Positions 5,381 through 64,000 of a stretch of 64,000 nucleotides of DNA are shown here, piece by piece (within the stretch, counting starts at the first letter, position 1; the number at the start of each line of letters is the position of its first letter). The notes under the pieces were generated by a model. It made no database searches. It saw only the letters and a program-made list of their open reading frames with translations, and was not told the DNA's origin. This DNA comes from an uncultured Gammaproteobacteria bacterium (GTDB lineage: Bacteria; Patescibacteriota; Patescibacteriia; UBA11705; JABHMO01): positions 7,133 through 71,132 of the forward strand of contig CAZMEQ010000002.1 of NCBI GenBank assembly GCA_964565345.1, in the 5' to 3' direction. The translations under genes and the position numbers were made by a program.

Positions 5381-5740
5381 CTATTTTGCCGTACGTAATA
5401 AGTTCTTAATTTCTGTCCACAGCATGGCTCCGATTTCATCAACAAGTTTATCGGCTTTTTTGAAGTTAGTCTTATTTATTAATTTATCAAAAGCACAAAG
5501 TTCAACCAAGTATTTAGATTCTTTTAATGATCCGTAAGAAATTTCTAAAAAATTCAATCTAACTCGGCTTCGATTACGTGCATAACCTTCTACATAGTTG
5601 AGCGCAATGGATAATGTTGATCGTCGTAATTGAGATGTAATTCCATACATTTCGCTTACGGGGAAATCTTTTGTCCAACCGTAGATTAGTCGAACATATT
5701 CATCCATCTTTTGTTTTAACTTTACTTGATATTCGTTCAT
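5381..5740 (-). CDS. Four-helix-bundle protein of the 23S-rRNA-intervening-sequence / Avd-like family
   Basis: 119 aa. LRRSTLSIALNYVEGYARNRSRVRLNFLEISYGSLKESKYLVEL resembles the conserved core of the PF05635-type four-helix-bundle family, recalled from memory. Confidence 0.65.
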   Translation of the reverse strand: MNEYQVKLKQKMDEYVRLIYGWTKDFPVSEMYGITSQLRRSTLSIALNYVEGYARNRSRVRLNFLEISYGSLKESKYLVELCAFDKLINKTNFKKADKLVDEIGAMLWTEIKNLLRTAK

Positions 5741-5749
5741 AGCTCAACG

Positions 5750-5930
5750 TTTTGTTTTCTTGCTTTCTTGCTTTTTTGCTTTCTTGTTTTCTTGCTTTCT
5801 TGCTTTTTGCTTTCTTGCTTTTTTGCTTTCTTGTTTTCTTGCTTTTTTGCTTTTTTGTTTTCTTGCTTTTTTGCTTTTTTGCTTTCTTGCTTTTTTGTTT
5901 TCTTGCTTTTTTGCTTTCTTGCTTTCTTGA
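5750..5930. repeat. Tandem array of about 20 short T-rich units (TTTCTTGC, TTTTTTGC and TTTTCTTGC, 8-9 nt each)
   Basis: Visible as ...ttttcttgctttcttgcttttttgctttcttg... repeated for about 180 bp. The variable unit length breaks all reading frames. The FLAFLLFCF ORFs at 5726-5991 are translation artefacts of it. Confidence 0.8.
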
Positions 5931-6110: not shown

Positions 6111-7205
6111 CTATTTTATTTGTGAGCGTAAATAACTTTCCATAAAAGGCAACAATTCCCCATCCAAAACATCATCAACATTAGTCGCTTCAAAATCGGT
6201 TCGATGATCTTTAACTAGTTTATACGGATGAATAACATACGAACGCGCTTGATTCCCCCAAGCTGCCTCAGTATATTCACCACGTAAACGGGCTCGTTCT
6301 TCTTCGACTTCTGTCTGATAATATTGTTGCAATTTAGATTTTAAAACTTTTAACGCTTTTTCTTTATTTTGCGCTTGAGACCGTTCGTTTTGACAACTGA
6401 CGACTATGTTTGTGGGTAAATGAGTAATACGGACTGCTGAATCAGTCGTGTTTACACTCTGCCCGCCCTTTCCGCTAGATCGAAAGGTGTCAATGCGTAA
6501 ATCATCCGACTTAATTCCTATTTCTACGCTATCCGGAAGAAATGGCAAAACCTCCACTAAAGCAAAAGAAGTATGCCGCATTTTTTCTGCATCAAAGGGC
6601 GAGATCCGCACTAAACGGTGCACCCCTGCTTCTGACTTTAAATAGCCATAAGCATGACGGCCTATAACCTCAAATAGGACGCTTTTTATACCCGCCTCCC
6701 CCCCATACGATGTTGTTATAATGTTTGTTTTCCAGCCTTGTTTTTCACAAAAGCGCAAATACATCCGTAACAACATTTCGGCCCAATCTTGAGCGTCGGT
6801 CCCACCAGCGCCCGCATGAATCGCAACTATGGTGTCTGCACCATCATAGTCGCCCGCAAAAAGTAGATTGAATTCTTCGGTAGCAAAAACAGTTTCTAAC
6901 TTAACAATTTGCTGCTCAACTTCTGTGCGCAAATTAACTGACTGGTCTTCGTCATCTAACTTAGTAATTTCTAGTAAATCACTTATATCACGTTTAATTT
7001 TTTGCCAAAATTGTACTTCTGTTTCTAAATCGCTGGCGCGACGAGCAATTAGCGTCGCCTTATCTTGGTTGTCCCAAAAACCAGGTGTACTCATTTCATT
7101 TTGCAAATGAATGCTTTCTTCTTTTTTCTCATCAATCTTAAGCAACTGCCATGCGCTTAACAATCTGTCCCGCAAGGCCGAAATACGATTGATAAGATCT
7201 TGCAT
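6111..7205 (-). CDS. prfB: Peptide chain release factor 2
   Basis: GGQ motif (SGKGGQSVNTTDSAVRITHLPT). SPF tripeptide (RISPFD) specifies RF2. 364 aa in a single frame, with no programmed frameshift. Confidence 0.9.
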   Translation of the reverse strand: MQDLINRISALRDRLLSAWQLLKIDEKKEESIHLQNEMSTPGFWDNQDKATLIARRASDLETEVQFWQKIKRDISDLLEITKLDDEDQSVNLRTEVEQQIVKLETVFATEEFNLLFAGDYDGADTIVAIHAGAGGTDAQDWAEMLLRMYLRFCEKQGWKTNIITTSYGGEAGIKSVLFEVIGRHAYGYLKSEAGVHRLVRISPFDAEKMRHTSFALVEVLPFLPDSVEIGIKSDDLRIDTFRSSGKGGQSVNTTDSAVRITHLPTNIVVSCQNERSQAQNKEKALKVLKSKLQQYYQTEVEEERARLRGEYTEAAWGNQARSYVIHPYKLVKDHRTDFEATNVDDVLDGELLPFMESYLRSQIK

Positions 7206-12084: not shown

Positions 12085-13356
12085 CTACATCATCTTTCTT
12101 CTTATAAAAGCTGGAATTTCTAAATCCTCATCATCGCTAGCTGAGGCCGTTCCAGGCTGAACGACCATATCTTCTGGCCGTATCTTGTCTGGATCTTCTG
12201 GTGGTTGAGGAGCCAAAGTGCTTTGTTCTAATTTTTTAGCGTCAAAGTCCAGGCGTGGTTCACGTTTTTCGGGCGCAGTAGCAGAACTTAAACTGCTAGC
12301 CTGGCTAGCTGGAGCAGCAGGCGCCTCCTTTTTAATCGGAGCAAAATAATTTGGAGTTGATGGTTGCATAGCATTAACGCGAAGCAAATGACTTTGTACC
12401 CCGGGTTGATCAAATCCCGTTGCCACCACCGTTATCTTAATTCTATCCTTTAAATTTTCATCGACTACTGCGCCGAAGATAATACGAGCATCACTGTCAA
12501 CTGATTCAGTTATAGTTTTCGCAGCCTCGCTCACTTCGTACATTGTTAGATCTGGTCCACCGGTAATTGTAAATAAAATGCCTTTTGCACCTTCAATGGA
12601 CACCTCTAATAATGGACTGGCAATAGCGGCCTTAGCGGCTTCAATGGCACGATTGTCCCCTTGAGCTTCGCCCATACCCATTAGGGCTGAGCCACTATTT
12701 TCCATAATTGTTTTAACATCAGCAAAGTCCACGTTAATCAAACCAGGCAAAGTGATAAGCTCAGAGATTCCTTGAACACCTTGGCGTAAAACTTCATCAA
12801 CAACACCAAAAGCTTCAATTAAAGGTGTTTTTTTATCAATAATTTGCCAAATTCTATCATTAGGAATAGTAATCAAGGTGTCAACCTTAGTAGCCAACTC
12901 TTTTAAGCCTTCTTCGGCAATACGTTTACGTGGACCACCTTCAAATGAAAAAGGTTTGGTAACTACTGCAATCGTTAAAGCCCCCATCTCTTTGGCAATT
13001 TCGGCGACCTTAGGACCAGCTCCAGTTCCCGTACCACCACCAGAGCCATAAGTAATAAAAACCATATCCGCCCCTTTTAAAATTTCGCGGATTTCATTCT
13101 GAGCCTCCTCCGCAGCCTTACGCCCCACCGCAGGATTCATACCTGCGCCCAAACCACGAGTTGTGCTTTTGCCAATATGAATTCTTTCGGGCGCTAAATT
13201 AGACTGTAAAGCCTGTAAATCTGTATTAAGCGAAATGAACTCAACGCCCTTAATCTTGGCCTGAATCATTCGGTTGATAGCAGAATTACCGCCACCGCCG
13301 ACACCGACGACTTTAATTTTGGCATAAGTTTGTATCTCTGGTTTGACTTCTGGCAT
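12085..13356 (-). CDS. ftsZ: Cell division GTPase FtsZ
   Basis: [13 protein letters not shown] and the tubulin signature [13 protein letters not shown]-terminal Pro/Ala-rich tail. Confidence 0.95.
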
Positions 13357-44682: not shown

Positions 44683-46134
44683 ATGATTAGCTTACGACAC
44701 TTAATTGATGAAATTCAAAAAAACGATTCCACTGCCGATACTTCATTGGTGGAGCGTGCTTATAATTTTGCCGAAGAAGCACATCGCGGCCAAAAAAGAG
44801 CTAGCGGAGAAGATTATATTCAACACTCTTTGTTAACAGCAAAAACTTTAGCTGAGCTAAAACTACCCATTCCCATTATTATTGCAGGTTTATTGCATGA
44901 TGTGCCCGAAGACACCACCAAAACTTTAGATGAAATAAGAAAAATTTTCGGCTCTGATATTGCCAAAATGGTTGAAGGCATTACCAAACTCGGAAAAATC
45001 AAGTATCGTGGTATGGATCGCTACATAGAAAATTTGCGTAAAATGTTTGTGGCCATGGCTCAAGATATTCGTGTCATTTTGATAAAATTTGCCGACCGCT
45101 TGCACAACCTTAAAACACTTTATGCCCTACCCGAACCAAAACAAAAGCGAATAGCCCTAGAAACTTTAGAAATATATTCTCCAATAGCCAATCGACTGGG
45201 AATTGGAGAACTTCAAGCCCAACTAGAAGATGCTGCATTTAAATATGCTTATCCAGAGGATTTTATAAACATCGAACAAGTCATCAAAAAAAATTACCCC
45301 CTCAAAAAGAAGACTCTTAACAGCATGATCCGGAAAATTAAAAACCGACTAGAACAAGACAACGTTAAATATTCCGACGTATATGGGAGAACAAAACATT
45401 ACTATAGTTACTACCGTAAATATTTAAAATACAATGCGGATCCCAAACAAATATATGACTTAGTGGCTATTCGCGTGATTGTTGAAAATGTCGCTGACTG
45501 CTACACTGTATTGGGAGCCGTGCACAATATTTGGCGGCCTATACGAGGGAGGATTAAAGACTATATTGCTCAACCAAAACCAAACGGCTACCAATCTTTA
45601 CACACTGCTGTTTTTGGCGATGAACAAGAAATTGTCGAAATACAAATTAGAACTAAAGAAATGCACGAGCAAGCGGAGTATGGTATTGCCGCACATTGGA
45701 ATTATAAAGAAGGCAAAAAAAGCCAACAGGAATTGGCCTGGGTTCAGGATTTGGCCAATTGGCTAAAAAACATAAACGACAATGATAAATTTTTAGAAGG
45801 AGCCAAAATTGATGTTTTTCAAAATAGAATTTTTGTTTTTACACCCCAGGGCGATGTCATTGATTTGCCCGACGGAGCCACCCCGGTAGATTTTGCCTAC
45901 CACATTCATACCGACATTGGCGATAAATGTTCCCAGGCGCGTATTAATAATGAAATAGTCTCTTTAAACTATAGGATTCGAAACGGTGATGTAGTCCAAA
46001 TAATCACAGATAAAAATCGTAAAGGTCCCAACCCCGATTGGCTGAGCTTTGTAAAAACCAGAACAGCCAGGCAACACATAGAAAACTACAAAAATAAAAG
46101 TTGGAAATCTTTTTTACCAATATTTTCAAAATAA
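44683..46134 (+). CDS. rel: RelA/SpoT-homolog paralog 2, bifunctional-type with intact HD. It has HD hydrolase, synthetase and TGS domains and no ACT domain.
   Basis: HRGQKRASGEDYIQHSL...GLLHDVPEDT (HD motif). VAIRVIVENVADCYTVLGAVHNIWRP...YQSLHTAVFG...IRTKEMHEQAEYGIAAHWNYK. TGS VFTPQGDVIDLPDGATPVDFAYHIH. Confidence 0.8.
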   Translation: MISLRHLIDEIQKNDSTADTSLVERAYNFAEEAHRGQKRASGEDYIQHSLLTAKTLAELKLPIPIIIAGLLHDVPEDTTKTLDEIRKIFGSDIAKMVEGITKLGKIKYRGMDRYIENLRKMFVAMAQDIRVILIKFADRLHNLKTLYALPEPKQKRIALETLEIYSPIANRLGIGELQAQLEDAAFKYAYPEDFINIEQVIKKNYPLKKKTLNSMIRKIKNRLEQDNVKYSDVYGRTKHYYSYYRKYLKYNADPKQIYDLVAIRVIVENVADCYTVLGAVHNIWRPIRGRIKDYIAQPKPNGYQSLHTAVFGDEQEIVEIQIRTKEMHEQAEYGIAAHWNYKEGKKSQQELAWVQDLANWLKNINDNDKFLEGAKIDVFQNRIFVFTPQGDVIDLPDGATPVDFAYHIHTDIGDKCSQARINNEIVSLNYRIRNGDVVQIITDKNRKGPNPDWLSFVKTRTARQHIENYKNKSWKSFLPIFSK

Positions 46135-46138
46135 AATT

Positions 46139-48254
46139 TATGAAACACAAAGGTTTATTAATGCCACTGCTTTTAACGTTTGTTCTGTCTTTATTTTTTG
46201 TCCTGACAGGCAATGTCCAGGACACTTTTGCCACAGATAATAAATACTGGGCCACAACTTACTACCAGGCAACCATAACAAACAGCCAGGGGAACAGCAT
46301 GATCATATGCTGTGTTGGTAATTACATGGCCTGTCTAAATTCAAAAGCAACACAACAACCCTGCCCAGATGCTTCAGGTGGCAAGTGTGACACATTCTCA
46401 GAATTAGAAACATTCAACCCCGCTGCCGCCATAGTTGTTAGAAACCAATGTTACCAGGAATCATATTGTTTCCAAAAATTAGACAACCCCGGCTGGGATG
46501 GGCAAGATGAATGCAAACTTTCTGCTCCAGATAATTGCACCTCCAACTCACAATGTTCATCGACTGAATATTGCGACCTAACATCACAACCCAAAGCCTG
46601 TTTCCCCAAAAAAGCTAACGGTAAAATGTGTACCAATGATGATGAATGTTTATACAAAAATTGCCAAAAGCCAACAGCTGGGGGAGTTGGAACTGGTTTT
46701 TGCAATAGTCCTGAATGTAAAACCTGGACCTATTCAGCTTGGTCCCCCTGTGTCGCAGGCGAACAAGCCAGAACCAAGTCAAACCCAATGCCTTTGGGGT
46801 GTACTGGTGGCACCTCGGAACCGCTCATAAGAGCTTGTGGGCCTGGCACAACTTGCACCTGGACCTACTCACCTTGGTCGCCCGCCACTTGCACTGCCGG
46901 GCAAAAACAAAATCGCACAAAATTTAACCCACAACCAGATGGTTGTGACCAAATAAACAGTCCTGCTGAACCCTTACAACAAGATTGTCTTGTAATACCA
47001 AATTGCAATACCTTCGAATACAGTGAATGGGGCGCCTGTGTAGATGGACAAAAAACACGTACGATTAACGAAGCTTCAAAACAACCCACTGGATGTAATG
47101 TTGTAAATCCAACTCTGACCCAAGCCTGCGGGGCTGGTATAGTCGATTGTACTCCAGAATCTTTTACCTACTCAGCCTGGAGTTCCTGTGTAGCTGGTAA
47201 AAAAACTAGAACACTCGTGTCCCGTAATCCCGCTAACTGCGTCGGCGATCCACCCGGTCCCTTTCAACAAACATGCACTCTAACTTGTACTGCCTGGACC
47301 TATTCACCATGGAGCGAATGTGGCAAAGCACCTGCTGGAATAACCGCTGAACCCAATAAACAAAAGCGAACAATTTTAACTTCTACTCCGCAAGGTTGCA
47401 CGGGTGGAGCATCTGGACCTCTAGAAAAAGGCTGTGCATCAGCCCCGGCCGCGACCTCTTGTACCCCAAATCCATGTCCCAAAGGACAATATTGTAACGG
47501 GACTGCTTGTGTTGCTGGTGTTCCAAAGGGTCAAGCCTGTGCTGGAGACTTTCAATGCGCTGCCGGTTTTTGCTACAATAGCGTTTGTAGCGATGCCCTC
47601 TCTGATGATTGCGCCGCACTAAGTGGCGATCCAACTGGTTGCGAAACACAACCCAACTGTATGATAGGAGAAGGTACAACTTGTGTGGCTCGAGCCACCT
47701 ATGGCATGGCTTGTACTGGCTCAGGACAAGGAAATTGTTCTGAGGGCGAGTGTATCCCATTCTTAGGGAAATCCGAATGTCGAAAAACTTGTACTAAACA
47801 CAGCGACTGTCCTGAAGGAAATTATTGTATGGATACTAATACTGCAAAGTTTTGTAAGGTTCGCGAAAAAGAAGGTGCTGTCTGTAACGCTGATGGAGAC
47901 GTTTGTATATCAGGTATTTGCGAATCAGGTAAATGTAAAGGCAACGCACCACCCACGGTTGATGCTAGCGGTGGAATCGTTAAAGCCCAATCAGAATTTG
48001 AGCTGCCTAATTTCTTACGAGTAGACGACCCGAATGTAGTAGTAGGTAGAATTATTAAATATATTATTGGCTTTGCCGGGACTATTGCGCTATTAACCTT
48101 TATGTATGGCGGTACTCTTTGGCTAATTTCCGCCGGCAGAACTGATTATGTGACTAAAGGGAAAAATTATATGATTTGGTCCGCCATTGGTCTGGCCATT
48201 GTCTTTGGATCATACGTTCTTGTCTCTCAGGTCCTGGCTTTATTCGGTCAATAA
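46139..48254 (+). CDS. Secreted Cys-rich protein with five thrombospondin-type-1-like repeats (W-x-Y-S-x-W-S-x-C ... RT) and a C-terminal pilin-like two-helix hydrophobic hairpin
   Basis: Signal peptide MKHKGLLMPLLLTFVLSLFFVLTG. Repeats KTWTYSAWSPCVAGEQARTKS, CTWTYSPWSPATCTAGQKQNRTK, NTFEYSEWGACVDGQKTRT, ESFTYSAWSSCVAGKKTRT and TAWTYSPWSECG. C-terminus VVGRIIKYIIGFAGTIALLTFMYGGTLWLISAGRTDYVTKGKNYMIWSAIGLAIVFGSYVLVS. The ORF track starts at 46101. Confidence 0.6.
46690..47420 (+). repeat. Five tandem TSP1-like WSxWS repeats (about 45 aa each) within the secreted protein
   Basis: Periodic W..YS.WS.C ... K/Q.RT motif in the translation. Confidence 0.55.
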
Positions 48255-48383: not shown

Positions 48384-49418
48384 ATGTCTCTGACCCTCAT
48401 CGGTATCATCGGTCTGTCCGTGATCGCGATGGCCGCCCTGGTGACCATGGTGCTGAAGAAGTGCCTGGTCGTCACCGAGTCGCCCAACCTGACCGTCGTC
48501 GGCGACTGGGGGAAGTCGCCGACCGACATCCTCAACCCGCCCTGGGAATTGATCTTCTACCCCGTCACCCAGGTGATGGGGGTCATCACGACCGAGGTGC
48601 AGCGGTACAACATGCCGCAGTGTACCCTGTCGTGCAGAATGCCCGACCCCAACGGTGGGGCAGGCATCGGGAAGATCAACACGAAGGAGGTTTCGCTCTG
48701 CTACCATTTCTACTTCTGGACCAGCAGCGAAATCCGCCTCCACTCACCTGGCACATCACTTCCCGCCGGCTTCTCGAAACTGATGCAACTGCGTAAGTTC
48801 TTCCAGTTCGTGGGATTCCTGGCCGACGGCAAGGTCGACTTCCCCAGCATGGAAGAGGCCCTGAAGGACAGCCTGCAAGGAGCCTTCTCCCAGATCAGCC
48901 GCACGCTGGAACTGGAAGAGGCCATCAACTTCCCGCAGGACAAGCTGGATGAGATCGCGCACGCACTACAGCAGGAGTTCTGGACCGAGGGCCTGCCCGT
49001 CAAGGTGGTGTCGCTCCAGAGGAATGCCCCGTTCGAACCGGAAGGTGAACTGGGCAAGTCCATCGCCGCACGTGTGGCGGCACTGGCCGCACTACCCACC
49101 AAGGTGGCCGAGGCCGAGAATGCCCGCCGTCTGGCGGTCATCAACGCCAATACCGCCCGTGAGGTGGCTGGCATCGAAGTCGAGACGGCAAAGCTGCAGG
49201 GCGACAAAGAAGTCGTCCGCATCGGCAAGGTGCTCGAGGCTTACCGCCTCGTGGCCCTGCCGCCCGAAGAGCAGGTGCGGCAACTCATGAACCTGGAACA
49301 GCTCCAGGTCTATCGCGAGATGGCCGCAAGCTCGAGTGCCAAAATCATGCTGGTGCCGACCGATGTTCTGTCCGGAATCGGCCGCGCGCTCAGCGCTTTC
49401 ACCGGAGGTCATCCATGA
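48384..49418 (+). CDS. SPFH/band-7 (stomatin/HflC/QmcA-like) membrane protein, GC-rich foreign-looking gene
   Basis: N-terminal TM. EAENARRLAVINANTAREVAGIEVETAKLQGDKEV ... LEQLQVYREMAASSSAKIMLVPTD resembles the Glu/Ala-rich helix and SSS.K..MP ending of QmcA/HflC-type SPFH proteins. GC in nearly every third codon position. Confidence 0.65.
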   Translation: MSLTLIGIIGLSVIAMAALVTMVLKKCLVVTESPNLTVVGDWGKSPTDILNPPWELIFYPVTQVMGVITTEVQRYNMPQCTLSCRMPDPNGGAGIGKINTKEVSLCYHFYFWTSSEIRLHSPGTSLPAGFSKLMQLRKFFQFVGFLADGKVDFPSMEEALKDSLQGAFSQISRTLELEEAINFPQDKLDEIAHALQQEFWTEGLPVKVVSLQRNAPFEPEGELGKSIAARVAALAALPTKVAEAENARRLAVINANTAREVAGIEVETAKLQGDKEVVRIGKVLEAYRLVALPPEEQVRQLMNLEQLQVYREMAASSSAKIMLVPTDVLSGIGRALSAFTGGHP

Positions 49419-50059
49419 ACCGAACCGTCACCATCTTCCTGTCCTCTGCCCTTGTGTTCGCGGGGCTCATCCTCGCGGACAGCATGTTCAACTGGGCGTG
49501 GTACTGGAAGGTGGGCGCGGCGGTGGGCCTGGGGATCATCCCCTGGTTCTTCGTTCGTCGATCGACCTCTGCCACCCCCGCAACCCCGGCCGCACCCGCG
49601 GCTGGCACTCGCCCCACCTGCCCCACCACCGCCCGCAGAGACTTCTGGGGCGACACGGCCATCCCGGCGGCAATCACGGTCGCTCTCTGGGCCGCGCTCG
49701 CCTACGGAGTCTGGTTCTGGGTCGTCATCCCGGTCGTGGAATCGGGCAAGGCAGACCCGCAGACCCGCGTCGTGAATAATGGGTTCGCCCATCACGACGC
49801 GACTTACCCGCGGGAAGTCAGTACCCACCCCTTCGAGGCCACCCTGTCGGCCAACCAGCCGACTGCGGTGTTCGAGGTCAAGGCCGGTGATCCCATCAAG
49901 ATCTACCGGCTGGACGCCCCGATCCGCGTCTGGGTCAAGGGGCAGAAGGGCTGGACGGAGTTTTCCACCCCCTACCGGTTCCGCCCCAAGCAGGACGGGA
50001 CACTCATGATTTCCTCTCCAACCCCGGGGAATCATGTGTACATTCACAACGAGGGTTAA
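49415..50059 (+). CDS. Membrane protein (3 predicted TM helices plus a C-terminal beta-rich soluble domain), plausibly the NfeD-like partner of the SPFH protein
   Basis: ATGA start/stop overlap with the SPFH gene. Hydrophobic helices IFLSSALVFAGLILA, VGAAVGLGIIPWFFV and ITVALWAALAYGVWFWVVIPVV. C-terminal beta-rich segment VFEVKAGDPIKIYRLDAPIRVWVKGQKGW. SPFH genes are commonly paired with nfeD (established pairing). The assignment here is an inference. Confidence 0.45.
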   Translation: MNRTVTIFLSSALVFAGLILADSMFNWAWYWKVGAAVGLGIIPWFFVRRSTSATPATPAAPAAGTRPTCPTTARRDFWGDTAIPAAITVALWAALAYGVWFWVVIPVVESGKADPQTRVVNNGFAHHDATYPREVSTHPFEATLSANQPTAVFEVKAGDPIKIYRLDAPIRVWVKGQKGWTEFSTPYRFRPKQDGTLMISSPTPGNHVYIHNEG

Positions 50060-52621: not shown

Positions 52622-53488
52622 TCAGGCCTGACGCACGGGCTTCCACTTGCCCGTGAGGTTCGTCCTTTCCCAGAGACGGATGTACTGTTCCGTCTTCTCG
52701 GATCGGATGCTCTGCTTCAGCAGGTTCTGCGCCTCGACAAGCTCGGGGAAGACCGACCGATCCAGATCCAGCCGCAAGAACCGATACAGATCCGGACCGA
52801 CCTTGAAGGCCGTACGCTGTACCAGAAGCTGGTCAGTCAGCTCGAAGAGCATGTTGGTCGTGGCATCCGTGATGGTGGGATCAGGGCGCACCCGCGCCTT
52901 GAACGCCTCGATGAGCTCGAGCGCGCGCTCGGCCAGGGTCCGATCCACGATGGTGATCGTGTTCACCCGGGCCATGACCCGCTTCAGTCCGTCGGTGCTG
53001 GTGAAGGTCACCTGCGAACGCAGGTTGCCCTTGGCATCTAGCAGATGCGAGAAGACGTGGGCCGTCACGTAGCCCTCGCGCGCGATGCTGGCCAGGACTA
53101 CTGCGCTGTTCAGCGCAAAGACCTGGGTCACCACTTCGTCCGTGGCCTGGCAACGTGCCCGCTCTTCGGCCATGACACGATCGAGCTCGCGCTGCTTCTG
53201 CGCCAGTTCTTCCTGTGCCGCACGCACGGCGTCACGTGCCTCGTCACGCTTCCTGGTCAATTCGCGCGATTTGTCCCGAAAGGCCTTAATGATGCCCTTT
53301 AGACCGGCTTCACGCTTGGTGCCATGTCGCACCAGATCGGCCAGAGCTTCCGAAGCATCGACGTACTGATGGTGCAACCTAGTCCAGGCTGCACGGGCCT
53401 TGGCCTCCGTCTTCTCCAAGACCTCGAGCTTTTTCTCGAGTGCTTTGACAGCGGACTGCAAGGTCCCAATAACTGTTTTGTGTCCCAT
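52622..53488 (-). CDS. GC-rich foreign-looking gene. Hypothetical protein with an N-terminal coiled coil of about 120 aa and a C-terminal globular domain of about 160 aa, of unknown function.
   Basis: 288 aa. Heptad-like Glu/Lys/Arg/Ala-rich N-terminal half (LEKKLEVLEKTEAKARAAW ... RKRDEARDAVRAAQEELAQKQRELDRVMAEERAR). No recognisable catalytic motif. Preceded on the minus strand by TTGACG-17-TATTAT and GAAGGAGG. Confidence 0.6.
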   Translation of the reverse strand: MGHKTVIGTLQSAVKALEKKLEVLEKTEAKARAAWTRLHHQYVDASEALADLVRHGTKREAGLKGIIKAFRDKSRELTRKRDEARDAVRAAQEELAQKQRELDRVMAEERARCQATDEVVTQVFALNSAVVLASIAREGYVTAHVFSHLLDAKGNLRSQVTFTSTDGLKRVMARVNTITIVDRTLAERALELIEAFKARVRPDPTITDATTNMLFELTDQLLVQRTAFKVGPDLYRFLRLDLDRSVFPELVEAQNLLKQSIRSEKTEQYIRLWERTNLTGKWKPVRQA

Positions 53489-61819: not shown

Positions 61820-61879
61820 TGGTTAAATTATAGCTTAATTACGTGTTTCTGTAAATCTGTTTTGGAGTAAAAATCCATC

Positions 61880-61912
61880 AAAAAAGCCCCTTTGGCGGGG
61901 CTTAATTTTATT
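61880..61912. terminator. GC-stem hairpin with flanking A-runs and T-runs (terminator-like) in the AT-rich spacer before cassette 3
   Basis: aaaaaagcccctttggcggggcttaatttta. Confidence 0.35.
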
Positions 61913-62067
61913 ATTTTATTTTAACAAAATTAGAACCCGCAAATAGGGCTGTCATTGTTATTATCCAAGGTGGTAATGCGAATCGATTGCATATAAATAT
62001 ATCTTTTCATATCTAATTTAATTTGACAATATCCTTTGACAAAATTAACCGATAAGGTTATCATTAA

Positions 62068-62979
62068 ATGTCCCGAGTGAGGACAAGATCAACCATTTCG
62101 GACACTCGAATGCTAAGTGAATGGGTCCTTCCTGGTGGACTGTACTACCCCGCTTCAACCTGCGTCTTGGGCGTTGCTATTGCACTGCATGGTGCGCACA
62201 AGAAGAATGAGTTCGGCCTCGGGCTGGGAGTAGGAATCGTCCTCTTGTCGATTTCCACCATACTCATGCTCTCTCCCTCCGTACAGGCTGCATCGGAAAT
62301 CCCCTCCTGCCCGACCTGCTTCATGGTTCCGGGCGAGAAGACCAAGCCCAAGAGCGTCCTGACCACGTCCGAAGTCAATGCCACAAAGACGCCCCAGGCC
62401 TATCCGCAGACCTACTTCGTCGGCCACTACCAGGTCGCGGTGGAACTCTACGAAAACGGCACCACGGCCGTCAGCGGAGAGCTCTACAAGCTCACCATCC
62501 TATCGTACGACGGGCGGATCCAACACGCACAGTTCGTGAATGTCGACCCCACGGTCAAATCCAGCACCGAACCGAACTGCTGGATCATCATGACCAACGA
62601 CTTCCGCGAACTGGAGGGCCTGAGCTTCCACGACGGCCCCCTGGTACCAATGTCCATCTGCTACCAGGAGGGACGCTTCAAGGACGATTCCGAGAGTGAG
62701 CTCTTCCGCTACTTCTCGGATCGCAAGGCCGACATCCTCCAATTGACCCGCGACTGCCGGGCCAAGCAGAGCTGCCTCCTGGACCGCGAAACCACGGCCC
62801 TCATCGTCGAGCTCTTCATCGCCAAGGCGTACCTCGAGCTGTCGGGCTTCAAGCCCGCCCTGCCCGAGAACTGGCACTGCGGGATGTCGCTCGACGAGCA
62901 ACGCCTCCTGGAGATGCGAATCCTGAATCGAATCAAGACGCGTCTCATCGACCACGTGATCCACAAGTCACGTCCGTAG
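62068..62979 (+). CDS. GC-rich foreign-looking gene. Hypothetical membrane-anchored protein with an extracytoplasmic Cys-containing domain. Paralog of the 63115-63816 product.
   Basis: Hydrophobic helices (LGVAIALHG, GLGLGVGIVLLSISTILML). CPTCF. NCWIIMTNDFRELEGLSFHDGPLVPMSICYQ aligns with WCVLVEDTADFYGMAELPMSAGPSVPMVMCLD of the next gene. TTGACA-17-TATCAT lies only 3 nt before the first ATG, so the start may instead be MLSEWV at 62107. Confidence 0.55.
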   Translation: MSRVRTRSTISDTRMLSEWVLPGGLYYPASTCVLGVAIALHGAHKKNEFGLGLGVGIVLLSISTILMLSPSVQAASEIPSCPTCFMVPGEKTKPKSVLTTSEVNATKTPQAYPQTYFVGHYQVAVELYENGTTAVSGELYKLTILSYDGRIQHAQFVNVDPTVKSSTEPNCWIIMTNDFRELEGLSFHDGPLVPMSICYQEGRFKDDSESELFRYFSDRKADILQLTRDCRAKQSCLLDRETTALIVELFIAKAYLELSGFKPALPENWHCGMSLDEQRLLEMRILNRIKTRLIDHVIHKSRP

Positions 62980-62985
62980 CCCTAC

Positions 62986-63023
62986 ACCCCCCCTCCTTTC
63001 CTCTGATCGGAGGGGTGTTTTTA
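62986..63023 (+). terminator. Intrinsic terminator after cassette 3
   Basis: cccccctcctttcctctgatcggaggggtgttttta. Stem cccctcc/ggagggg followed by a T-run. Confidence 0.5.
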
Positions 63024-63056
63024 TACGCAAATTTACCTAAATTTAGGCAAAAACTA

Positions 63057-63085
63057 TTGACATTACCTGTGTTTTATGATATCAT
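63057..63085 (+). promoter_or_regulatory. Sigma70-like promoter (TTGACA, 17 nt, TATCAT) for cassette 4, preceded by the palindrome CCTAAATTTAGG at 63036-63047
   Basis: ttgacattacctgtgttttatgatatcat read directly. Confidence 0.5.
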
Positions 63086-63114
63086 ATAAGCAACCAACTG
63101 CCTTAGGGCACATC

Positions 63115-63816
63115 ATGTTCGACCTGAACAAGATCGTCCGTCGCGTCGCGCTCGAGAACCTCCTGAAGATCGTGCTGCTCGTGGCGGCGCTGATCCTCGT
63201 CATCTTCCGCCTCTCCGGGGAGCTCCAGGCCCAGCCCCGCCCCACGATCGAAGCTGCCGAGTACGCCACCACCTGCTACGAGGACAACCAGTTCCATGTG
63301 CGCAGCACCCCGTCCTGCGGCGCCTCGCACTGCACGTACTTCATCGAGATCTCGAACCGCAAGAACGATGAAGTCCTCATGTTCTTCTGGGCCGACTCGC
63401 CGTTCGTGCAGGTTCTCTCGCCCTGGTGCGTGCTGGTCGAAGACACCGCCGACTTCTACGGCATGGCCGAGCTCCCCATGAGCGCCGGCCCCAGCGTCCC
63501 CATGGTCATGTGTCTCGACAAGCACAGCCGGTGGTACGAAGCCCCCCAGATGGCCATCTACACCTTCCGCTCACGCCTGCGCGAGCTCCTGCCCACCATC
63601 AACAACGGTTCGGGCCAGGACCTGAAGGTCGCCATCGTCGAAGCCCTGGCGCTGCAGGAGATCCTGCTTCGTGCCGGGCAGAGCAGCAACCTGCCGAACC
63701 TCGAGCAGGCGCTCCGTCTCGCCGCCGCTCGCGCCAAGCTCTCCTACTCGCTCATCGAGATGGAGGTCAAGGAACGTTGTGACCGGCGCCTCCAGTTCCG
63801 CGGGCTCTCCAAGTAG
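63115..63816 (+). CDS. GC-rich foreign-looking gene. Hypothetical N-terminally TM-anchored protein with an extracytoplasmic Cys-containing domain. Paralog of the 62068-62979 product.
   Basis: TM LLKIVLLVAALILVIF. Conserved block PWCVLVEDTADFYGMAELPMSAGPSVPMVMCLDKH shared with the upstream gene. The ORF-track start at 63076 lies inside the AT-rich promoter. The composition switch and MFDLNK mark the real start. Confidence 0.55.
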   Translation: MFDLNKIVRRVALENLLKIVLLVAALILVIFRLSGELQAQPRPTIEAAEYATTCYEDNQFHVRSTPSCGASHCTYFIEISNRKNDEVLMFFWADSPFVQVLSPWCVLVEDTADFYGMAELPMSAGPSVPMVMCLDKHSRWYEAPQMAIYTFRSRLRELLPTINNGSGQDLKVAIVEALALQEILLRAGQSSNLPNLEQALRLAAARAKLSYSLIEMEVKERCDRRLQFRGLSK

Positions 63817-63837
63817 ACCCGCACACCTGCTACGCAG

Positions 63838-63876
63838 CTCCCTACCTTTCCGCGGATCGGTAGGGAGTTTTCTTTT
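63838..63876 (+). terminator. Intrinsic terminator after cassette 4
   Basis: ctccctacctttccgcggatcggtagggagttttctttt. Confidence 0.55.
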
Positions 63877-63883
63877 ATTCCAA

Positions 63884-63912
63884 TTGACAAAAAGACCCTA
63901 TCAAGTTAAACT
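63884..63912 (+). promoter_or_regulatory. Sigma70-like promoter (TTGACA, 17 nt, TAAACT) for cassette 5
   Basis: ttgacaaaaagaccctatcaagttaaact. It is followed by the inverted repeat at 63917-63935 and SD GGGGAGG at 63944-63950. Confidence 0.45.
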
Positions 63913-63916
63913 CCTT

Positions 63917-63935
63917 TGATGCCATGACGGCATCA
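63917..63935. promoter_or_regulatory. Operator-like inverted repeat TGATGCC-atgac-GGCATCA between promoter and SD of cassette 5
   Basis: Perfect 7-bp arms separated by 5 nt, positioned at the expected transcription start region. Confidence 0.4.
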
Positions 63936-63957
63936 CGAATTCTGGGGAGGATACACC

Positions 63958-64000
63958 ATGCCCGAACAGACCACTCCCTGTGGCCGCGTCGTGACCACCA
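63958..64000 (+). CDS. Start of a fifth GC-rich gene (MPEQTTPCGRVVTT...), truncated by the window end
   Basis: ATG 8 nt after GGGGAGG. GC-rich codons. It continues beyond the window. Confidence 0.4.
   Translation, partial: MPEQTTPCGRVVTT

Follow-up and report, generated by a model that had tools for sequence, protein, structure and literature searches.

A clade-specific family of GC-rich genes for predicted exported proteins, carried as separate cassettes in a variable island of Patescibacteria genomes

A 64-kb stretch of an AT-rich genome of Patescibacteria type (candidate phyla radiation, CPR; ~38 % GC), referred to below as the window, ends in a GC-rich block running from position 62068 to the window end, in which two adjacent genes, gene 1 and gene 2, encode the proteins P1 and P2. 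These proteins are very diverged, old paralogues and belong to a previously undescribed family, a small clade-specific set of predicted exported proteins. The genes of the family are carried as separate cassettes in an island, cut here by the window end at 64000, whose content differs between related genomes. The reading preferred here, to which we give a somewhat better than even chance, is that they constitute a clade-specific variable repertoire of exported, disulfide-stabilized proteins, each encoded by its own strong cassette within a flexible island.

Both open reading frames (ORFs; 62068–62979 and 63115–63816) are present as described in the original prediction, which had proposed that they were tandem, divergent paralogues. 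The direct alignment suggested as a check was marginal (BLASTP E = 0.042, 22 % identity over 99 residues), whereas searches with profiles and through intermediates were above chance. A hidden Markov model (HMM) built from P2 and its homologue P0002 only, when run against 6368 ORFs from all six frames of the window and 81 loci, ranked P1 at the top (E = 8e-4), with the runner-up at E = 2. In tblastn searches P1 matched the P2 homologue in locus L001 at 0.003, and the reverse search gave 0.004. Intermediate sequences matched both proteins, namely L082_1 (P0004; 1e-26 with P1 and 5e-15 with P2) and L084_A (4e-31 and 2e-14, respectively). The AlphaFold models showed a single architecture of eight strands followed by four helices, with a predicted local distance difference test score (pLDDT) of 84.2 for P1, in which most blocks of residues 36–226 exceeded 90, and of 84.6 for P2 (predicted TM-score 0.81). 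Homology of P1 and P2 is accepted because the profile, transitive, structural and architectural evidence agree. That two unrelated GC-rich ORFans merely happen to resemble each other, for which the weak direct alignment would speak, is scarcely credible, as this is already refuted by the profile ranking and the shared intermediates, with which the structure and architecture agree.

The limits of the family were narrow. HMMER, run exhaustively over 1.84e9 representatives, identified 22 proteins at E ≤ 1e-3, of which four, long cadherin-like/SprB-repeat proteins, were judged to be spurious sums of many weak repeat matches (hhalign probability 1.3 %). This left ~18 credible family representatives among 1.84 billion, and ~10 distinct genomes were found to carry the family. 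P2 had a single homologue (P0002, 48 % identical) in a collection of 5.8 billion clusters, and word-indexed protein searches matched only the query itself and one homologue. No match was obtained for P2 in a scan of genome contigs, for the P2 plus P0002 alignment in a metagenome scan, for P2 plus P0002, P1, G288 or G344 in viral contigs, or by tblastn against phage and plasmid records. Pfam gave no match for P1 or P2 at E ≤ 1. When the 22 members were scanned against curated libraries (Pfam-A, NCBIfam, PHROGs and PADLOC) the matches were scattered and confined to single members, none recurring; PF22309, for instance, matched one member only (E = 2.7e-4), PHROGs gave no match for the family, and no toxin, immunity, defence or signalling domain recurred. 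The best E values were 0.052 in a sequence-profile search of the PDB and, with Foldseek, 0.14 in the PDB (TM ≤ 0.26) and 0.056 in BFVD. The family was thus placed in no curated family or solved structure, and the earlier remark that no known domain could be recognized holds for Pfam, NCBIfam, PHROGs, PADLOC and the PDB.

All full-length members began with one to several hydrophobic helices, followed by a site of the form [ST]P-x2-3-[AC]-x-[AST]↓Q/A. This site appears to be of the signal peptidase I type rather than a lipobox; the lipobox motif L-[AS]-[GA]-C was not found at the end of the signal peptides, although some members had a cysteine near the site outside a lipobox context. The hydrophobic N-termini of P1 and P2 were noted correctly from the outset, but the segment taken for a membrane anchor may instead be a cleaved signal peptide. 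The predicted exported domain comprised ~190 residues, with an eight-stranded β part and then four helices. Its best-conserved part was the block already recognized as shared by the two proteins, which had the family consensus C-x4-5-T-x-D-F-x-G-x3-L-P-x3-G-P-x2-P-x-V-x-C; the final cysteine was invariant in 22 sequences, whereas the tryptophan of the 'CW/WC' element and the 'PVPM' string, both singled out initially, were not conserved in the family. The signature loop is bracketed by two cysteines and the domain has conserved cysteine pairs. P1-like members had an extra CRAxxxC pair, PENW-x-GG and a C-terminal RL..HVP (P1 subfamily pattern CRAxxxC ... PENW-x-GG ... RL-x-x-HV), and P2-like members had P-x-CGAS-x-C-x-Y and a C-terminal RC..RL..RGL (P-x-CGAS-x-C-x-Y ... 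RC-x-x-RL-x-x-RGL). A third subfamily type was represented by P0011 and P0013.

Each of the two genes was found to have its own promoter and a terminator with a hairpin and U-run, in agreement with the original prediction (Table 1). Five promoter-like sites were detected in the region, against 1.3 ± 1.3 in shuffles. The promoter architecture of gene 1 also preceded family genes in L082, L084 and L092, and in the alignment of orthologous-type cassettes a stem-loop TGTYCC-loop-GGRACA lay ~3 nt past the −10 element, with a TTGAGG Shine–Dalgarno sequence before the aligned ATG. The true start of P1 is probably ATG 62110 and not ATG 62068, because the latter is 3 nt past the −10 element, inside the conserved stem-loop that aligns with non-coding leaders. 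For gene 2, ATG 63076 was ruled out because it falls within the promoter, and the start was placed at 63115. The gene 2 promoter aligned with those of L084_B, L084_E, L092_3 and L082_3 as a homologue, its hairpin in the 5′ untranslated region (UTR) was conserved with one compensatory change (TGCC/GGCA versus TCCC/GGGA), and its terminator was homologous to those behind L084_B and L084_E.

Table 1. Features of the window discussed in the text (positions are those of the 64-kb window)
Feature	Position	Strand	Details
Gene 1 promoter	62036–62064	+	σ70-type, TTGACA-17-TATCAT; 11/12 positions match
Gene 1 probable 5′ leader	62068–62109	+	Stem-loop GTCC-N7-GGAC at 62070–62084; holds annotated, probably false ATG 62068
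Gene 1 (P1)	62110–62979	+	289 aa; 303 aa if start is 62068
P1 AxA-type site SVQA↓AS	ends at 62289		Predicted; follows hydrophobic segment at ~residues 49–73 (303-aa form)
P1 family signature block	62575–62667		
Gene 1 intrinsic terminator	62994–63015	+	7-bp stem then TGTTTTTAT; fold computed
Gene 2 promoter	63057–63085	+	TTGACA-17-TATCAT; 11/12 positions; TG extended −10
Gene 2 small 5′-UTR hairpin	63099–63110	+	TGCC-N4-GGCA; overlaps Shine–Dalgarno-like AGGG
Gene 2 (P2)	63115–63816	+	233 aa
P2 AxA-type site LQA↓QP	ends at 63231		Predicted; signal/anchor segment at residues 10–38
P2 family signature block	63421–63519		
Gene 2 intrinsic terminator	63836–63878	+	11-bp stem then TTTTCTTTT; −22.5 kcal/mol (63814–63885)
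Next cassette	63884–64000	+	Promoter 63884–63912 (TTGACA-17-TAAACT), 5′ hairpin 63917–63935, Shine–Dalgarno GGGGAGG, ATG 63959; cut by window end
asnS-to-island gap	61877–61975		Bidirectional terminator-like hairpin at 61884–61903; corresponds to L001 9095–9215
GC-rich ORFan	48384–49418	+	Weak, sub-threshold SPFH/Band_7 match
GC-rich ORFan	49415–50059	+	ATGA overlap with preceding ORFan
GC-rich ORFan	52622–53488	−	Between tRNA-Leu and tRNA-Met; weak phrog_846 and DUF3164 matches
Cysteine-rich protein gene	46101–48254	+	717 aa; C-terminal T4SS-pilin domain (PF18895, E = 3e-6)
Tandem array	5752–5929		Intergenic; 8-bp unit TTGCTTTC, ~22 copies, 86 % matches
Small four-helix-type ORF	5381–5740		Flanks the tandem array
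prfB-like gene	6111–7205		Region upstream of it flanks the tandem array

The 12 members that could be placed all came from AT-rich CPR genomes, and 10 shared a single neighbourhood that extends from asnS to rluD/gmk; the credible members P0018 and P0019 were not placed in a genome context. The island neighbourhood was common to eight distinct loci with one to four copies. Copies followed asnS in the window (two seen), L001 (one), L082/L083 (three), L084/L093 (four), L092 (four) and L086 (two), and lay between rluD and gmk in L089 (two) and L094 (one), with single copies elsewhere in L085 and L095. In L002, whose asparaginyl-tRNA synthetase (AsnRS) is 80 % identical to that of the window, asnS directly adjoined rluD and the island was absent. 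A GT4 glycosyltransferase and a Peptidase_S11 were encoded upstream in all loci, and a surface-related cassette for an FdtA/WxcM-like cupin was present in the same island of L001 and L084. The mix of subfamilies differed between loci, so that no pair was conserved: L082 had three copies of P1 type and no copy of P2 type, and in L001 an unrelated 194-aa membrane protein occupied the slot matching P1, before a gene of P2 type.

Every copy was a separate cassette consisting of a near-consensus σ70 promoter, a 5′ stem-loop, the coding sequence and an intrinsic terminator; several promoters in other loci matched at 12/12 positions with TG, and the terminators were strong. The leaders were of two classes, with either a stem-loop right after the −10 element (class I) or a hairpin overlapping the Shine–Dalgarno sequence (class II). 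Cassettes B and E of L084 had near-identical 5′ and 3′ flanks and proteins only ~30 % identical, and L001_1 joined a promoter, leader and two-helix N-terminus of P1 type (class I) to an ectodomain of P2 type. Cassettes have been duplicated, lost and reordered between closely related genomes, and 5′ modules have been recombined with different ectodomains. In these respects the loci correspond to a flexible genomic island and a variable exported multigene family, export being judged by hydropathy and the AxA motif.

Three other explanations for the arrangement were considered and set aside. For a diversity-generating retroelement, no direct or inverted repeat of at least 30 nt involving 62–64 kb was found within the window, reverse transcriptase not having been searched for exhaustively. 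For integron cassettes, each copy had its own near-consensus promoter and no attC-like repeat was common to the window cassettes, intI not having been searched for. Assembly chimerism was rejected as the combination of GC-rich coding sequences with AT-rich flanks recurred in independent NCBI, ENA, JGI and Logan assemblies.

Several further elements were observed in the island spacers. A perfect palindrome resembling repetitive extragenic palindromic (REP) elements, GTACGTGCAGGTCGCGACCTGCACGTAC, with a 12–14-bp stem, was repeated in the AT-rich spacers of L082/L083 and L084 (L084 9858–9889 and 12492–12523; L082 10312–10339 and 10360–10387) and was absent from the window; in L082 it gave rise to a spurious 49-aa ORF call. 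Short repeats of TACGAAT type were abundant in the L084 spacers. Small hydrophobic ORFs (~36 aa) followed some cassettes in the same transcription unit (L084 9491–9601 and 12155–12268), and at ~7900–8330 in L092 a multi-helix membrane ORF ending just past an AxA-like site resembled the N-terminal module of the family without an ectodomain.

The cassettes diverged far more rapidly than the genomes that carry them. AsnRS of the window was 92–93 % identical to those of L082, L084 and L092, whereas the best family identities in these three loci were 41 % to P1 and 31–33 % to P2; P2 was closest (48 %) to a protein of the more distant L001 (AsnRS 86 % identical). The rate of non-synonymous substitution (dN) was 0.19–0.50 for orthologous cassette pairs, compared with 0.013–0.10 for AsnRS of the same genome pairs, and cassette dN was 4–17 times that of AsnRS and aspartyl-tRNA synthetase (AspRS). 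The ratio of dN to synonymous substitution (dS) was 0.18–0.72 for cassettes and ~0.03–0.05 for AsnRS and AspRS. Evolution of the family is rapid, and members are exchanged or replaced.

A marked anomaly in composition was found throughout the family. The ORFs of at least 150 aa in the window formed two groups with none between, comprising ~40 native ORFs with a third-position GC content (GC3) of 0.28–0.38 and five genes with a GC3 of 0.76–0.89. GC3 was 0.79–0.81 for P1 and 0.91 for P2 against a native value of ~0.32, with C at 51–58 % of third positions in both. First-position (GC1; 0.57–0.62 versus ~0.50) and second-position values (GC2; 0.40 versus ~0.33) were raised less. GC contents were 0.20–0.31 in promoters, 0.51–0.53 in leaders and 0.61–0.67 from stop codon to terminator, and the shift therefore spanned the whole transcription unit. 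High GC was near-universal in family genes across loci (GC3 up to 0.96), with intermediates at 0.51–0.69; P0011 of L094 had a native GC3 (0.35), and its positional counterpart, P0013, a GC3 of 0.91. An effect of high expression on codon usage was ruled out by rplS (ribosomal protein L19), which had a GC3 of 0.18–0.28, and GC-biased gene conversion was disfavoured, as the ~400-bp island spacers of L084 (9600–9990 and 12270–12630) stay at 35–45 % GC.

Silent changes were compared at the third bases of codons in which the amino acid and first two bases were unchanged, and were scored as differences between strong and weak bases (SW) or between G and C (SS). The SW : SS counts for cassette pairs were 9 : 21 (L092_3/L082_3), 19 : 16 (P2/L001_1), 29 : 13 (L092_4/L084_C), 41 : 10 (L092_1/L082_2) and 47 : 6 (L084_A/L092_2), and those for AsnRS were 87 : 3 (L092/L082), 123 : 5 (window/L001) and 63 : 3 (L084/L092). 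In the cassettes, changes between G and C had thus piled up and changes to A or T had not been retained. A two-state decay calculation showed that strong/weak patterns alone do not separate decay from equilibrium and that only the SW : SS ratio is informative. Synonymous divergence of orthologue pairs was comparable to that of their genomes, with both copies holding a GC3 of 0.8–0.96. These results indicate that silent sites are under a sustained pull to G/C. Two readings fit this retention, either a directional force acting in situ, or divergence in an unsampled GC-rich reservoir with repeated import to one neighbourhood. Tentatively, and as a possibility short of an even chance, an accessory gene class (the family, a few ORFans and the cupin) may be held in a separate compositional regime by an in-situ force, whole units from start site to terminator holding a GC3 of ~0.8–0.96 in a genome at ~0.32 whilst promoters and spacers stay AT-rich. 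Such a regime would point to selection on mRNA or codon properties of the gene class, or to targeted mutation or repair from weak to strong bases. Candidate effects include stable, nuclease-resistant transcripts (5′ hairpin, GC-rich body and terminator) and translation gated by tRNAs for G/C-ending codons. On that reading the composition would not be a trace of foreign origin. Full-text literature searches did not find such a codon regime described for CPR.

The cassette that follows gene 2 probably encodes an FdtA/WxcM-like cupin, an identification that relies on its upstream sequence. The stem of its 5′ hairpin (TGATGCC/GGCATCA) recurred upstream of FdtA-like genes in L001 (12122–12138; gene at 12166–12681, PF05523, E = 4e-10) and L084 (13593–13609). 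This palindrome had been read as the operator of a regulated gene. The stem was identical in the window, L001 and L084, and the loop was of 5, 3 and 3 nt, respectively; because loop length varies, a 5′-terminal RNA hairpin appears to fit better than an operator of fixed spacing. The proposed tie of P1 and P2 to this gene as one system reduces to co-location.

The GC-rich block had been called foreign DNA in the original prediction. Its composition is aberrant, but foreign origin proved too simple, given that all placed members are in AT-rich CPR, that P0011 is native in composition, that GC2 is only modestly raised and that silent G/C is kept. Recent horizontal transfer would mean that the cassettes, like morons, had come from a phage, a plasmid or another GC-rich donor and had so far escaped amelioration, and that the family has its home elsewhere. 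It would accord with coding sequences at 0.59–0.64 GC and a GC3 of 0.8–0.9 against native values of 0.38 and 0.32, with the strictly bimodal distribution in the window, with the promoter and terminator of each gene, as in phage morons, and with island content that differs between close relatives. The GC-rich gene between tRNA genes, with its weak phrog_846/DUF3164 match, also favours transfer, and G/C-conserving silent changes would be expected as well if the copies had diverged in a GC-rich reservoir. We nevertheless regard transfer as rather unlikely. The exhaustive HMMER search found no member with a readable context outside AT-rich CPR (P0018 and P0019 not being placed), phage and plasmid records and viral contigs yielded no matches, and the promoters and spacers, rich in A/T and homologous from locus to locus, are like those of the host. 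GC2 (0.39–0.42) and GC1 (0.52–0.62) are far nearer to native values than a GC3 of 0.9 predicts, which counts against transfer because amelioration should lower GC3 first. The native P0011 in the slot of P0013, the intermediates, and the orthologue pairs that have diverged at synonymous sites as their genomes have, yet retain high GC3 in both copies, are likewise contrary to it.

A two-gene module, whether of toxin and immunity protein, of receptor and co-receptor in a heterodimer or of paired sensors, perhaps together with the next gene, had been suggested from the adjacency of two separately regulated same-strand genes with a common exported cysteine-containing domain, and heterodimers of diverged paralogues are common in general. 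It must now be considered very improbable. P1 and P2 are predicted to fold alike, the library scans detected no domain related to toxins, immunity, defence or signalling, and the pairing is not conserved, family genes being single in L001, L085, L094 and L095, in arrays of three to four in L082, L084 and L092, without a P2-type member in L082 and beside an unrelated membrane protein in the P1 slot of L001. The features of a polymorphic toxin/immunity pair were accordingly lacking, and those of a membrane sensor also, as the proteins end with the exported domain, have short N-terminal cytoplasmic parts (some members being multi-helix) and include no cytoplasmic output domain. A clade-specific envelope housekeeping or assembly factor, for instance one that serves pili, wall or S-layer as a chaperone or accessory protein, whose duplication and divergence would be neutral, is improbable to a lesser degree. 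The apparent export of the proteins, the conserved location close to envelope genes (the upstream glycosyltransferase and peptidase genes) and a dN/dS below 1 are in its favour, but there is no copy between asnS and rluD in L002, copy number varies from one to four with a strong independent promoter on every copy, and the window copies are only 25–41 % identical across genomes with 92 % AsnRS identity.

Under the preferred reading of a variable exported repertoire, proteins of the family would be binding proteins exported by the Sec pathway, with export and cleavage predicted from motif and hydropathy, and exposed on or released from the cell. Disulfides, suggested by cysteine conservation, would stabilize the exported domain. 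One to four diverged copies would supply variable specificities towards the host cell surface, phage or competitors, with the copies acting independently of one another rather than as a two-gene system. The episymbiotic biology attributed to CPR is the reason for proposing a role in host-surface contact or in evasion of phage or competitors. Several points weigh against this reading. No homologue or fold match assigns any function, and a dN/dS below 1 does not demonstrate positive selection and would fit relaxed constraint as well. The reading also gives no account of the extreme G/C codon usage, and ~10 distinct genomes are a thin basis for generalization.

Flexible ('metagenomic') islands of variable surface components are known, as are paralogous families such as Mycoplasma vlp/vsp and those of Borrelia. 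The present family resembles these variable families in its single neighbourhood of varying content, its tandem diverged exported paralogues, its deviant composition and its fast evolution. It differs in that the fold and family are unrelated and that no invertible promoters, homopolymeric tracts or silent donor cassettes were seen; unlike flexible islands, which are usually AT-richer than the genome, the cassettes deviate upwards (GC3 ~0.9). Phage morons, reportedly described by Hendrix and colleagues, are said to be single genes with their own σ70 promoter and terminator and a composition unlike that of their neighbours. The cassettes share with them the promoter, factor-independent terminator, odd composition and insertion between genes, but not a prophage location: the flanking genes are asnS, aspS, rluD, gmk and rplS, PHROGs gave no match, no relatives were found in phage or viral collections, and the cassettes form a paralogous array across genomes. 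The ompA and aprE leaders are 5′-terminal stem-loop stabilizers of mRNA, and every cassette likewise has a stem-loop within a few nucleotides of its predicted start, which is placed 5–9 nt past the −10 element; here, however, the starts are predictions only, and class II hairpins, which overlap the Shine–Dalgarno sequence, could regulate translation. The nearest case found was that of the lgr 'large G+C-rich genes' of Protochlamydia amoebophila, dispersed genes of 4.5–5.6 kb encoding leucine-rich repeats at 41–43 % GC in a genome of ~35 %, a composition that its authors ascribed to foreign origin (PMC2216083). In both cases lineage-specific paralogues are GC-richer than an AT-rich symbiont genome and have their own promoter with TG at −15 and C-rich third positions, but the lgr case is much milder, as the shift here is 59–66 % versus 37–38 %, and the present genes are arrayed.

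Elsewhere in the window, which also encodes ScpA/B, AspRS, AsnRS, ParAB and a protein resembling type IV secretion system (T4SS) pilins, gene-sized GC-rich blocks were found at 48384–50059 and 52622–53488 in addition to that at the window end. They hold three more GC-rich ORFans (GC3 0.76–0.84), two of which overlap and follow the T4SS-pilin-like gene; in L084 and L093 the corresponding site holds orthologues of the third (61–65 % identical and likewise GC-rich). The 717-aa cysteine-rich protein had a raised GC2 (0.53–0.54) and a native GC3 (0.35). In the gap between asnS and the island, a stretch of ~50 nt (aacccgcaaatagggctgtcattgttattatccaaggtgg) that follows the terminator-like hairpin was kept in L001 and not in L084, and could represent a small RNA or small ORF; Rfam gave only a sub-threshold chance hit there, and nothing above the gathering score in a scan of 61.8–64 kb. 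An intergenic tandem array was also present near the other end of the window.

A life attached to other cells is assumed for CPR/Patescibacteria and, to our knowledge, almost nothing has been described of the proteins that mediate or vary this contact. The family provides concrete candidates for determinants of host range or of interaction with phage, recognizable by the signature loop. The pattern of its base composition calls into question whether a deviating GC content can routinely be taken as a sign of recent transfer and, if the in-situ force is real, would represent a new kind of intragenomic partition of codon usage in bacteria.

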